In this document: positions 33,086 through 36,509 of the stretch, piece by piece
Layout of the letters: every line of letters begins with the position of its first letter
How positions within the stretch are numbered: position 1 is the first letter of the stretch
Made by a program: the position numbers and the translations under genes
Notes under the pieces: model-generated
The model's database searches: none
Told to the model about the DNA's origin: nothing
Seen by the model: the letters and a program-made list of their open reading frames with translations, nothing else
Source: a virus
IMG/VR virus record: IMGVR_UViG_3300022752_004330
Coordinates: 1-64,000 of that record
Length of the DNA: 64,000 nt
Strand: one strand, 5' to 3'

Positions 33086-33426
33086 CCGTCCCAATCTCTT
33101 GTTTTTTCAATGAAAATTTCTAAAATTTCTTTATGATCTAAGTTTTGGAATTCTTTGCTTACTGTGTAAATTTTGTCTATGTCCATGGGTTCCATACCTT
33201 TTAATCCAATAAGTTCAATTATTTCTTGAAAACTTATTTCTTCATTTCTCATGCTGCTTACCCAAATACAAGTTACTAAACAGGCCATAAGCACAATTTT
33301 ATTATTATAGACTCCCTGTATTTCACACCATTCTACAGTGCGTTTGAGATAGTAATCTATATCTTCTAATCTATTTTCTAAGTTCTTGATCCAGTCTTGA
33401 GTGTCTGTTCTTAACCAAGGCTTCAT
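33070..33426 (-). CDS. Hypothetical protein (118 aa)
   Basis: ATGA-coupled to iscA. Confidence 0.7.
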
Positions 33427-33749
33427 ACGCTAAAACTTTCTCCACATCCACATTTGGCCTTTTCGTTAGGATTTTTAAATTCAAACCCTTCGTTTAATCC
33501 TTGCTTGACCCAGTCCATTTCTAAACCGGTTAGATAAACCGCACTCTTACCATCCACATAAACTTTTACCCCGTGGTTATCATAGACAAATTGATCTCGG
33601 GTAATAGGCGGAGTATCAACATATTCTAGCACATAGGCTAGCCCACTACATCCTGTGGTCTTTACTCCTACCCTAATGCCTAGGCCTTTACCTCTGCGGG
33701 CAAGATTATGCTTTACTTTTTCTGCTGCTCTTTCAGTTAACGAGATCAT
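33423..33749 (-). CDS. iscA: Fe-S cluster assembly A-type carrier IscA
   Basis: [17 protein letters not shown]...CGCGESF. Confidence 0.92.
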
Positions 33750-34130
33750 GTTTTTGTTTATAATCTGCTATTGCCGCTTTTATGGCATCTTCTGCGAGGA
33801 TTGAACAATGTATTTTTACTGGGGGGAGCGCCAGCTCTTCGGCAATCGCCGTATTACGTATTGTGGAAGCCTGGTCAAGAGTCTTGCCTTTAACCCATTC
33901 AGTAACCAGCGAACTACTAGCGATTGCACTGCCGCAACCATAAGTTTTAAATTTTGCATCGGTAATAACACCATCCTCTACCTTTATCTGTAGTTTCATC
34001 ACATCGCCCGTCAGCCGCAAGCGGGAGCACCGACCATGCCGGTTCCCACTTGCGCCATTTCCTCCTTATTAAAAGATCCTACGTTTCTGGGGTTCTCATA
34101 ATGATCCAGAACTTTTTCGCTGTAAGCCAT
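33733..34130 (-). CDS. iscU: Fe-S scaffold IscU, interrupted by an 8-nt insertion (34013-34006); 129 aa if the insert is skipped
   Basis: 5' part 34130-34014 reads [39 protein letters not shown]; 3' part 34005-33733 reads DVMKLQIKV...[10 protein letters not shown]...LPPVKIHCS. All three Cys and the LPPVK motif are intact. Confidence 0.9.
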
Positions 34131-34132
34131 TT

Positions 34133-34717
34133 TTATTCTCCTAAAATACTTCTAACAACTTCCATTGATTGGAATGAATCCCATTTCTTTCTGTTTTCTT
34201 CTCCTAAGATCCATCTTAAATTTTTCCTACTCCCTAATATAGAGGGATCTATTCCTAGCTCAAATCCTTGACGATAGGGAATAATATGATCCAACTGATA
34301 TTGATTTTTCCTTTTACCTGTGTCAGCAGGTATAAAACCTTCTTGTTTCATAGCATACCAAGATCGATATGTTGCTTTTCTAACTTCTCTCTTATATGCA
34401 GTAAAATTATCGTCTACATAATTCTTAGGACGCCGATTATTAACGCGACCATCTTTGTTAGGATTATCTTGTTTCCATCTTTTGCTTTGTTTTTCATTAG
34501 CAATGCCCTTATTCCAGCCCCATCCTTTTTTTAATCCTTCTCTGTTTTGTTTTGACTTTTGTTCTTCTGTCAGAGTTTTTCCTTTGTTCCAGGGTGTGTA
34601 TTCTCCTCTGTTCAAAGGATTTTTACATTTTTGTGAACAATAATCTAAAAATCTCGGCCTAGTTTCAAATTTTAAACTACAAAAAAGACAAGTTTTAATA
34701 ATGCCATATTTTTTCAT
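34133..34717 (-). mobile_element. Free-standing HNH homing endonuclease (Zn-finger + NUMOD3-like WNKG repeats + HNH)
   Basis: CLFC...YCSQKC, PWNKGKTLTEEQK, GWNKG, YQLDHIIP...NL...EN..K; probable start ATG 34717, 5 nt after TAAATA; sits between iscU and its divergent promoter. Confidence 0.75.
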
Positions 34718-34787
34718 AACATTATTTATCATCTCGGCGTGCCCGTTTGCGAGTTTAATTTTTAAATTCCTTTTTACTATACTAGCA

Positions 34788-34804
34788 TATTTACCAGGTA
34801 AATA
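34788..34804. promoter_or_regulatory. Back-to-back TAAATA late-type promoters (palindrome TATTTACC-A-GGTAAATA)
   Basis: Perfect 8-bp inverted repeat between divergent HNH/iscU/iscA and erpA. Confidence 0.6.
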
Positions 34805-34809
34805 CAAGC

Positions 34810-35133
34810 ATGATTGATATCACAACGTCCGCACAAAATAAGATACAAGAGTTACTTTTGGAAGAAAACAATCCTAATATAAAACTACGCACCTTTGTTC
34901 AAGGAGGTGGATGTTCTGGCTTTCAGTACGGGTTTACTTTTGATGAAGACCAAGCAGATGACGATTTTGAAATTCCAGTAGGCCAATTCAAAATTCTTGT
35001 AGATGCAATGAGTTTACAATATCTGCAAGGAGCAGAAATTGACTATGCAGACGATTTATCTGGTGCTAGTTTCAAAATTAAAAACCCAAATGCTGCTTCT
35101 TCATGCGGATGCGGAAATTCCTTTTCCATTTGA
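34810..35133 (+). CDS. erpA: Fe-S insertion protein ErpA (HesB family)
   Basis: [46 protein letters not shown]. Confidence 0.88.
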
Positions 35134-35195: not shown

Positions 35196-36509
35196 ATGAG
35201 ACATTGCGATTCAATTATTCGTATTCTACAAGATCACCCCAGCAGGTTAAACAAAGAAGCTATTATTCTTGCAGAAGCAGAATCTGGTAATGAAGAACTT
35301 TTCGCCGGATTTAGATGGTGCCTGAGCCCATATGCTACATTTGGTGTGAAAAAAGTTCCAGAACACAAAAACCCAGATGGTCCCGGAGTGTCTTGGAACG
35401 ACTTTGAAACATTATTGAACATGCTGAGTTCACGAACTATTACTGGACACGATGCAAGAGATGCTATTGAGCGAGTAATGCTAGCCAGCACCAGAAGTCA
35501 ATGGAATGATTGGTATAGACGCATATTGATTAAGGATCTGCGTTGTGGCGTAAGTGAAAAAACTATCAACAAGGTACTACAGGATTTTCCTAACATTGTA
35601 CCTATTCCTGTATTTGAGTGTATGTTAGCACATGATTCTGCTAATCATGAAAAGAAAATTCAAGGTAAAAAATTATTAGAACCCAAACTAGATGGTGTCA
35701 GAGTAATCACCATAGTTGACACTGTGAATAACACAGTGGTGCAATATAGTAGAAATGGTAAAGTATTAGAAAATTTCACTCATATTACCGACAGTTTGTT
35801 AAAACACATTAATCTAATTGAACGTCCTATGGTATTAGACGGTGAAATAGTAAGTACTAGTTTTCAAGATCTTATGAAGCAGGTACATCGCAAGGACAAT
35901 GTACAGGCTGGCGACGCAAGATTAATGCTGTTTGATATTATCCCGTTAAGTGAGTTCAGGGCAGGGGTTAGTGTAATGGGACAGCGCCGCCGTAGTAATT
36001 TGTTACGTACGATGAAACCAATTTTTAATATAATTGGTCATATTGATATTATTCCTCAAGAAGAAGTTGACCTGGACACCTATGTTGGAGAGTTGCAATT
36101 TAAACAGTTTAACAAAGATGCTATAGACAAGGGTTTTGAAGGTATTATGATAAAGGATTTAGAGGCAAAGTATGAATGTAAAAGATCAGCTAGCTGGCTT
36201 AAGCAAAAACCTTTCATTGAAGTATCACTTCAAGTCGTTGAGGTTGAAGAGGGCACAGGCAGGAATGTGGGCAGACTTGGTGCACTGGTCTTGGAAGGTG
36301 TGGATGACGACAAGACAATCAGAGTTAACTGTGGTTCGGGCTTTAGTGACGCTGACCGCGGTATATTTTGGACAGGGCGTGATACGCTACCTGGTCAAGT
36401 AGTAGAGGTTCGTGCAGATGCTATTACACAAAATCAAGACGGTTCTTACTCGCTTAGGTTTCCGAGATTCCTACGTTTCCGAGGATTTAAAGCAGGGGAG
36501 AAACTCTAG
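35196..36509 (+). CDS. lig: ATP-dependent DNA ligase
   Basis: EPKLDGVR (motif I), LDGEI, FDII, EGIMIK, SLRFPRF. Confidence 0.95.
   Translation: MRHCDSIIRILQDHPSRLNKEAIILAEAESGNEELFAGFRWCLSPYATFGVKKVPEHKNPDGPGVSWNDFETLLNMLSSRTITGHDARDAIERVMLASTRSQWNDWYRRILIKDLRCGVSEKTINKVLQDFPNIVPIPVFECMLAHDSANHEKKIQGKKLLEPKLDGVRVITIVDTVNNTVVQYSRNGKVLENFTHITDSLLKHINLIERPMVLDGEIVSTSFQDLMKQVHRKDNVQAGDARLMLFDIIPLSEFRAGVSVMGQRRRSNLLRTMKPIFNIIGHIDIIPQEEVDLDTYVGELQFKQFNKDAIDKGFEGIMIKDLEAKYECKRSASWLKQKPFIEVSLQVVEVEEGTGRNVGRLGALVLEGVDDDKTIRVNCGSGFSDADRGIFWTGRDTLPGQVVEVRADAITQNQDGSYSLRFPRFLRFRGFKAGEKL

Follow-up and report, generated by a model that had tools for sequence, protein, structure and literature searches.

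Introduction

Programmed translational bypassing so far rests largely on gene 60 of bacteriophage T4 and its homologues, plus the byps of yeast mitochondria. In gene 60, which encodes part of a topoisomerase, a Gly take-off codon is followed by a stop and lies 47 nucleotides (nt) before a matching Gly landing codon, and a free-standing HNH-type endonuclease gene, mobA, is found just 5′ of the interrupted gene. Here, we describe an interruption of the iron–sulfur scaffold gene iscU in a 64,000-nt stretch of viral DNA (positions 1 to 64,000 of IMG/VR record IMGVR_UViG_3300022752_004330; hereafter the window), in which 8 nt beginning with a stop codon and ending with a repeated Gly codon break the gene downstream of an HNH-like nuclease gene. 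We consider it likely that the locus carries a homing cassette whose insert makes the carrier immune, and that a stop-hop from Gly to Gly, powered by an mRNA hairpin, takes the ribosome across this insert. Such a hop, the most likely way in which the insert is decoded, would be a natural short version of the gene 60 bypass.

The arrangement resembles mobA/gene 60 in that a free-standing HNH-type gene lies just 5′ of the interrupted gene, that the gap falls about 40 codons into the open reading frame (ORF; codon 39 in iscU and codon 46 in gene 60) and within a highly conserved protein motif, and that a Gly take-off codon is followed by a stop and has a matching Gly landing codon. In both cases the endonuclease decays and the gap stays, as has been described for MobA/gene 60 elements (bioRxiv 10.1101/2022.08.31.505936), and in both an mRNA structure that lies 5′ to the codon for take-off is implicated in forward movement; for gene 60, pairing of the exiting mRNA has been proposed as the driver of forward bypass (bioRxiv 10.1101/2024.12.09.627546). 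The 5′ stem-loop of gene 60 is reported as not conserved between clades, whereas the 5′ hairpin of iscU is the conserved element. The systems differ in the distance between the take-off and landing codons, which is 3–7 nt in iscU, and in the host gene, which is not a topoisomerase and is not split into two genes by the endonuclease. The iscU cassette also has no sequence similarity to the gene 60 cassette (MobA lay outside the nuclease comparisons), has neither a take-off stem-loop nor a mini-Shine–Dalgarno (SD) sequence that is shared across lineages and has no evident dedicated nascent-peptide signal. By analogy, the iscU cassette would work as the mobA/gene 60 cassette does; homology between the two is unsupported by any test that we made.

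Three other kinds of recoding are close enough to invite comparison. In the synthetic Escherichia coli stop-hops of Weiss, Dunn, Atkins and Gesteland (1987), matching codons lie on either side of a stop and 9 nt give one amino acid; the 2016 review of recoding that describes them knew of no natural hopping over an in-frame stop, and shorter counterparts of bypassing had long been presumed (PMC5009743). One of our alleles, L115 with GGT TGA GGA, has exactly the 1987 layout; the synthetic sites were engineered and inefficient, whereas the iscU layout is natural and conserved, has its own hairpin and includes out-of-frame gaps. The byps of Magnusiomyces capitatus mitochondria are likewise short mobile non-coding inserts that are bypassed between matched take-off and landing codons. 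These yeast elements are 27–55 nt long and have an unused codon in the A site; to our knowledge, they are linked to no homing endonuclease gene and to no role in immunity. The +1 shift in prfB, the gene for release factor 2 (RF2), shares with the proposed iscU hop an A-site stop, often UGA-C, as the slow step and a P-site tRNA that re-pairs downstream. In prfB the shift is an overlapping one with an upstream SD stimulator at a fixed spacing, whereas in iscU the shift covers 6–10 nt, there is no overlap of the codons and a hairpin would serve as the stimulator; no SD sequence conserved 3 nt upstream of the shift codon, as prfB-type geometry has it, was found. In the literature searched we found no published account of bypassing in iscU, of natural stop-hops or of short-distance bypassing.

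The insert and its variants

On the minus strand of the window, the codon for Cys37 of IscU (34019–34017) is followed by a Gly codon, GGC, and then by TGA; the GAT GTG ATG AAA that comes after the 8 nt insert is in a different frame from the 5′ part of the gene. Both pieces of iscU match Pfam NifU_N (PF01592; Table 1). Deletion of the insert in silico joins 39 and 90 residues into a 129-residue IscU in which Cys37, Cys63, Cys106, Asp39 and LPPVK are all present and which has zero further lesions. A preliminary description of this DNA had reported the stop-first insert with its repeated GGC and the restored protein with three Cys residues and LPPVK, and the sequence bears out both.

A search of viral contigs with the C-terminal piece of IscU gave 80 loci with 80–93% amino-acid identity. 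The motif GAPACGDVMK is uninterrupted in 73 of these and is broken in the other seven at precisely the insert site. A second search with the upstream ORF gave 63 viral and 80 metagenome loci. Combining the two, with alleles taken from IMG/VR and JGI contigs, there are 44 distinct insert-bearing junction alleles carrying 24 distinct inserts, which disposes of the one-off lesion that the preliminary description had named as the outcome that would count against it. The insert of the window, TGACGGGC, is also found in L167 and in L147, whose DNA is 80% identical to that of the window across 2.6 kb, and 8 nt variants other than that of the window occur at more than 20 loci from many samples. A sequencing or assembly artefact might be suspected from the single G, within a G run, by which the insert of the window differs from the commoner TGACGGC; because the identical insert recurs in diverged contigs, we regard an artefact as excluded for practical purposes, and the family-level finding would stand even if the insert of the window were one.

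The 24 inserts have lengths of 6 nt (one variant), 7 nt (nine), 8 nt (six), 9 nt (seven) and 10 nt (one), so that all three frames are represented. The first triplet is a stop in 23 of them (TAG in ten, TGA in nine and TAA in four) and TGT in the remaining one, with TGA-C as the most frequent stop context; the last triplet is GGN in all 24, and the take-off codon is likewise always GGN. The grammar of the site is constant: Gly codon, stop, 0–4 nt, Gly codon and Asp codon. Insert-bearing alleles differ from their intact homologues solely by these 6–10 nt, and the flanking frames are open in every allele. The in-frame inserts (6 or 9 nt) all retain the stop, and the insert is therefore never simply translated. 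An alternative genetic code was considered for the in-frame TAG and TGA inserts and was rejected: all three stops end ORFs in every clade, reading TAG or TGA as sense opens no long frames, and the 7, 8 and 10 nt inserts would be left unexplained.

Gap length varies among close nuclease relatives. In the nuclease tree, L115 (6 nt) lies within the clade that carries the 8 nt insert TGACTGGA, its nuclease being nearly identical to the nucleases of that clade, and L125 (7 nt) nests in a 9 nt clade. Inserts of 6 and 9 nt are in frame with a stop, those of 7 and 10 nt need a +1 shift and those of 8 nt need +2 or −1, and for this reason a hop is preferred: only a hop would account for all of the insert lengths by one mechanism, and the Gly–stop–Gly–Asp grammar is what a hop of peptidyl-tRNA(Gly) requires. 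The corresponding set of other recoding events (+1 for 7 and 10 nt, +2 or −1 for 8 nt and read-through for 6 and 9 nt) would place one to three extra residues between Gly38 and Asp39. The A-site stop with a C after TGA does resemble the prfB shift site, and the hairpin described below could act as a general pause or shift stimulator; we nonetheless hold this explanation to be improbable. Sister lineages with one and the same hairpin would have to rely on three or four different mechanisms, and an SD-like stimulator is absent from the place that it has in prfB. Residues that vary between alleles (D, N, R, E, L-T and others) would be added beside the cluster ligand Cys37 and Asp39, within a motif that shows no variation among 67 naive alleles (those with neither insert nor nuclease gene), and the in-frame inserts would have no reason for keeping the stop. 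The preliminary description had proposed decoding by a GGC-to-GGC hop or by a −1 shift; the occurrence of 6–10 nt inserts in close relatives favours the former and speaks against the latter.

A hairpin specific to insert-bearing alleles

The 48 nt that end at the take-off codon of the window fold into a 17 base-pair (bp) stem-loop with a minimum free energy (MFE) of −28.8 kcal/mol. Its 3′ arm begins with the final nucleotide of an Ala codon, continues through the codons for Pro, Ala and Cys and ends on the first G of the codon for take-off. A small CCG-CTTG-CGG hairpin had been noticed at this place before; it is present, but it turns out to be just the tip of the base of this larger structure. 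Among the 44 unique insert-bearing alleles, 10–11 of the 11 positions of the basal stem are paired and the mean MFE is −24.5 kcal/mol. The figures are 4–9 of 11 for both the 19 unique nuclease-positive insert-less alleles (mean MFE −10.7 kcal/mol) and the 67 unique naive alleles (−13.5 kcal/mol). The 17 bp hairpin is thus present in every insert-bearing allele and in no other allele, and it tracks the insert and not the nuclease gene. Because it follows the insert in this way, its role is most economically the decoding of the insert, and it would act as the stimulator of the bypass.

Covariation was tested on an alignment of 14 distinct sequences with 500 shuffles. Ninety-five per cent of the cells in the alignment are paired, as against 30–42% when the partner is slid, and compensatory changes occur at four pairs (for example A-U, C-G and U-A at 12–42 and five pair types at 15–39); the observed covariation score was reached by none of the 500 shuffles. 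The 5′ arm achieves its pairing through amino-acid changes, with xQVG or xHVG in insert-bearing alleles and TDIG, DTVG and similar sequences in naive alleles.

A strong hairpin that abuts the insert, with short direct GG repeats flanking the gap, might also suggest that the insert is removed at the RNA level, by hairpin-guided realignment or processing of the transcript, so that a normal mRNA is translated. This we think very improbable. A conserved stop as the first triplet of the insert makes sense for a ribosome only, there are no homopolymer runs for transcriptional slippage and a search of Rfam with 33600–34900 of the window gave zero matches. We know of no bacterial system that excises 6–10 nt.

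Two further observations concern RNA structure at this site. In L086, L090, L117, L014 and the TGACTGGA lineage, stop and landing codon are bridged by a further small hairpin, (A)UGAC(G)...(C)GUCA(U), which covers about 20 nt from the stop codon. Its Val codon is GTC, seldom seen among naive alleles (6/67), and it may be a lineage-specific take-off structure. A search for a conserved 3′ take-off hairpin found lineage-specific ones only (UGACG...CGUCA, in the TGACGGA and TGACTGGA lineages) and not a general one. Secondly, in three naive loci, L017, L018 and L069, which have neither insert nor nuclease gene, the 48 nt before the Cys-Gly codons of iscU form a strong hairpin of another register (−23 to −25 kcal/mol). 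These loci may be former carriers of the cassette after precise loss of the insert, or the folding may be due to chance.

Selection on the interrupted gene

Insert-bearing and uninterrupted alleles were compared using pairwise Nei–Gojobori estimates of nonsynonymous (pN) and synonymous (pS) differences. For the 5′ half of iscU, pN and pS are 0.149 and 0.612 in insert-bearing alleles and 0.164 and 0.770 in uninterrupted alleles; for the 3′ half they are 0.144 and 0.789, and 0.136 and 0.773, respectively. Purifying selection on both halves, which the preliminary description had proposed to test, is as strong as on intact genes. Between insert-bearing lineages synonymous sites are near saturation (pS 0.6–0.8) at a pN of about 0.15; given near-saturated synonymous sites and a conserved protein, the insert has persisted through long divergence with both halves under selection. 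A search for additional stops or frameshifts in insert-bearing alleles found none.

These values bear directly on a tolerated knock-out, in which the insert would be a repair scar or an immunity mutation that inactivates a dispensable gene. iscU is an auxiliary metabolic gene that is missing from many phages, and nuclease activity could select any disruption of the target. The explanation is strongly disfavoured by the low pN in both halves against saturated pS, just as in intact genes, by the lack of a second lesion in any allele, by the fixed stop-then-Gly grammar and the maintained covarying hairpin, and by two alleles that keep an open Hint (intein-like) insertion of about 337 residues in the downstream frame.

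This insertion is found in the insert-bearing iscU of L098 (3272–4282) and at the same place in L101. It is positioned at the second ligand Cys, Cys63 (KTYG/C...HN/CGS), and its similarity to the Hint module is sub-threshold (expectation value, E, of 1.3e-4); we take it to be a probable intein whose middle part has the size of an endonuclease. Two distinct selfish elements thus sit at two Cys codons of iscU.

A second explanation retains selection on both halves. Translation might terminate at the stop to give a 39-residue peptide, with a C-terminal fragment re-initiated at Met41, so that either two chains or only one of them matters. The stop lies directly after codon 39 and an ATG is found 9–16 nt downstream in all alleles; the outcome would be like that of genes, T4 genes 39 and 60 for example, which homing endonucleases have split. 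Genes that are split by Mob-type endonucleases can still form functional complexes, and such a split gene would show selection on both halves too. The codons after the gap, GGN GAY GTN, which lie between the stop and this ATG, change synonymously only (GGA/GGC/GGT, GAT/GAC and GTA/GTC/GTG/GTT) and are therefore translated in the downstream frame. A split IscU would also not account for why the Gly codon is duplicated and why the conserved Asp39 would be lost, the hairpin that ends on the take-off codon would have no obvious role in re-initiation and an SD motif before Met41 is not conserved in all variants. We consider a split or truncated IscU to be unlikely, although it is the least unlikely of the alternatives to a hop.

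Linkage, mobility and altered target codons

In the set of loci sampled through iscU, the nuclease gene or a remnant of it is present at six of the seven insert loci and at one of the 73 insert-less loci (Fisher p = 1.6e-7), which establishes the co-occurrence that the preliminary description had proposed to test. The nuclease homologues from the upstream-ORF search nearly all sit directly 5′ of iscU. On the protein tree of IscU, the insert label takes 11 changes on the best tree and one starred branch separates insert-bearing groups; this tree has too few columns to be fit for testing multiple gains, and an analysis of mosaics was used in its place.

For the mosaics, informative sites shared with a cassette mate or with a naive relative were counted in three-way comparisons, for nt 1–117 of iscU and for nt 178 to the end. 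In the first segment the mate and the naive relative share 36 versus 0 sites with L095, 45 versus 0 with L088, 37 versus 0 with L099 and 26 versus 3 with L111, which is nuclease-positive and insert-less; in the second segment the counts are reversed to 4 versus 38, 10 versus 50, 10 versus 53 and 4 versus 58, respectively. The breakpoints lie about 10–60 nt 3′ of the insert site in these four independent trios. L095 and the naive L041 are also 90% identical over 1.9 kb upstream, and this identity and the mosaics together mean that nuclease gene, 5′ segment of iscU and insert were transferred as one unit. They were copied jointly into a foreign iscU with a crossover just 3′ of the insert, which is the signature of homing with co-conversion; the nuclease-containing cassette is mobile, as had been suggested before from the window. 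For the left boundary of the cassette the best pair is L095 and L041; L041 has another gene in the position of the nuclease gene, so that this comparison gives no exact boundary.

That gene is a radical-SAM-like ORF of 307 residues (L041:1897–2820). The neighbourhood of iscU is a variable hot spot, with 0.5–1.4 kb of extra genes between iscU and iscA at several loci (the spacing was examined in L005, L006, L028, L041, L058 and L076).

Not every nuclease-positive allele has the insert. Across the tree of nucleases, alleles that lack it have arisen in two or three places, and conversely a nuclease remnant with a retained insert is found in L005, L014 and L137–145. All eight nuclease-positive insert-less alleles of the viral set have replacements (M>L, V>T, A>S, V>L and M>L) at positions that are invariant or nearly so in the 67 naive alleles, and the corresponding alleles of the metagenome set have replacements of the same kind. 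An allele with the nuclease gene carries, in every case, the insert or else replacements at codons that do not vary among naive alleles. The replacements would place the recognition site of the nuclease in the GAPACGDVMK codons and point to a second route to immunity, through a putative block of cleavage. The free-standing homing endonucleases MobE and Seg of T-even-type phages, to which carriers are immune through polymorphism of the target site, offer a parallel: they have a sporadic distribution and flanking co-conversion tracts, the target sequence of the carrier is altered and this target-polymorphism situation matches that of the 19 nuclease-positive insert-less iscU alleles. Unlike MobE and Seg, most lineages of the iscU cassette would use an untranslated mini-insert, and not substitutions, for immunity.

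The upstream nuclease

The nuclease gene ends 2 nt before the ATG of iscU, and a GGAGA motif 5′ of this ATG is kept across cassette-bearing loci. The preliminary description had called the product an HNH endonuclease; its position was correct, and for its identity the matches are sub-threshold. Sequence and profile searches of Pfam, NCBIfam, PHROGs and the PDB gave nothing above threshold except for phrog_5104, which is of unknown function. Below threshold, Pfam HNH matches nine of 19 family members (best E 0.0012), NUMOD3 matches four of 19, and HNH_4 and HNH_5 matches also occur across the family. Asp143, His144, Asn166 and Asn175 are invariant in the family, giving a D-H...N...N pattern. 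The model of the C-terminal part (residues 101–194) is confident, with a predicted local distance difference test score (pLDDT) of about 90, and is structurally most similar to the HNH nicking endonuclease with PDB code 4h9d (Z = 5.0, root-mean-square deviation 2.9 over 65 residues) and the HNH protein of phage GVE2 (PDB code 5h0o; Z = 3.9). Foldseek against the PDB returned only Cas9 HNH domains at E of about 1. The matches in BFVD are uncharacterised proteins of T4-like phages, and tblastn against GenBank phages likewise gave weak matches only, to unannotated proteins of T4-like phages. The nuclease is best described as HNH-like, a candidate member of the HNH family.

An alternative TTG start at 34807, which would give a protein of 224 residues, was disfavoured, since the homologues all align from MKKYG or KYG; the ATG at 34717 is preferred. 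No second copy of the nuclease was found in the 113.7 kb record to which the window belongs and there were no copies in 185,579 species genomes; the cassette was not found in cultured phages in a search of 50,697 GenBank phage records.

Proposed mechanism and points against it

The cassette would have spread into iscU in a set of large freshwater phages and would have three parts: the HNH-like nuclease gene, free-standing and translationally abutted to iscU; the first 117 nt of iscU, recoded to form a 17 bp mRNA hairpin that ends on the Gly codon after Cys37; and the insert directly after this codon, consisting of a stop, 0–4 nt and a second Gly codon. The nuclease may cut or nick the insert-free iscU of co-infecting relatives at the GAPACGDVMK codons, and through repair the recipient would acquire the nuclease gene together with the 5′ segment of iscU and with the insert. 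The carrier allele would be immune through its insert or, in some lineages, through substitutions in the same codons. During translation, the ribosome would pause while peptidyl-tRNA(Gly) occupies the take-off GGN and the A site holds a stop that is poorly read. With this GGN in the P site, the 3′ arm of the hairpin would be inside the ribosome and the 5′ arm would be waiting; re-pairing of the hairpin behind the ribosome could then pull the mRNA out on the exit side, moving the ribosome forward by a few nucleotides. The tRNA would re-pair with the next GGN and decoding would resume at Asp39, the product being a normal IscU without extra residues. We infer the cleavage, the immunity, the hop and the efficiency of the hop from the pattern of alleles; the recurrence, the linkage and mobility, the purifying selection and the insert-specific covarying hairpin are direct observations on them.

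Several points weigh against this mechanism. In E. coli, short hops that are not programmed have a low efficiency of about 1% or less. The codons for take-off and for landing are identical in ten of the 24 variants and are U/C wobble partners (GGT>GGC) in six, and in the other eight GGT and GGA are mixed (GGT>GGA in seven and GGA>GGT in one); a tRNA(Gly) of the E. coli type would not wobble-read both, and such pairs need either a tRNA(Gly) that reads all four codons or a P site that tolerates a mismatch at the third base. A search of the window for tRNA genes found none. In the variant TGTTGGA (L125 and L126; junction near L126:3195–3201), the take-off codon is not followed by a stop. In two variants, that of the window among them, an overlapping GGG lies 1 nt before the landing GGC, which could yield landings in the wrong frame. 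Because insert-bearing alleles share ancestry, the 44 of them do not count as 44 independent sightings of the hairpin. Finally, the HNH assignment depends on sub-threshold matches. The variant without a stop (GGT TGT TGG A GAT) keeps the hairpin and both frames and is nested in the TAGTTAGGT clade.

With these points taken into account, the earlier interpretation of the window is supported overall and is extended in two respects: by the conserved 5′ hairpin and by target-codon substitutions as an alternative route to immunity.

Genomic context in the window

The features of the locus are collected in Table 1. The 113.7 kb record is estimated to be 32% complete and its source is therefore probably a large phage. 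iscU is flanked by two diverged iscA-type genes on opposite strands and also by a gene for an ATP-dependent DNA ligase; iscU and the two iscA-type carrier genes form a small phage module for Fe–S assembly. Between the ATG of the nuclease gene and the start of the divergent iscA paralogue there are 92 nt (34718–34809).

Table 1. Features of the iscU locus in the window
Feature	Position	Strand	Details and basis
iscU 5′ segment, codons 1–39	34014–34130	−	Start 34130; ends with Cys37 and the take-off Gly; Pfam NifU_N positions 1–35, E 5.7e-11
iscU 3′ segment	33733–34005	−	Asp39 resume codon GAT 34005–34003; stop 33735–33733; NifU_N 34–124, E 7.1e-37
8 nt insert TGACGGGC	34006–34013	−	TGA 34013–34011; CG 34010–34009; proposed landing codon GGC 34008–34006
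Proposed take-off codon GGC	34014–34016	−	Gly38 in mature numbering, Gly39 with initiator Met; sequence
Stem-loop, 17 bp	34016–34054	−	Basal 11 bp 34054–34044/34026–34016; apical 6 bp 34043–34038/34034–34029
iscU ribosome-binding site GGAG	34138–34141	−	Inside the last codons of the nuclease gene; sequence
HNH-like nuclease gene, free-standing	34133–34717	−	194 residues from ATG 34717; NUMOD3-like repeats; stop TAA 34135–34133
iscA-type carrier gene, downstream	33423–33749	−	Overlaps the end of iscU; context, outside the cassette; Pfam Fe-S_biosyn, E 1.7e-18
iscA-type gene, divergent	34810–35133	+	Fe-S_biosyn
ATP-dependent DNA ligase gene	35196–36509	+	phrog_114

Implications

Genes of this kind are presently annotated as fragments or pseudogenes. 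The 24 natural variants in gap length, stop and codon pairing, together with the covarying hairpin, are a ready-made mutational series for take-off, sliding and landing, and are suited especially to the proposal that pairing of the exiting mRNA pushes the ribosome forward. The cassette would be a second, and independent, instance of a selfish unit made up of a homing endonuclease plus an insert that is not translated, and it supports the idea that recoding can evolve as immunity against an element's own nuclease. More tentatively, and with rather less confidence than we have in the cassette itself, the 39 nt hairpin and the GGN-stop may be a compact and self-contained driver of bypass that takes ribosomes efficiently across an arbitrary gap of 3–7 nt and on to the next cognate codon without a nascent-peptide signal. 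If this is true, these would be the first natural stop-hops, and we suggest that short hops behind apparent frameshifts and pseudogenes near homing endonucleases would then be a general and overlooked immunity device of phages.

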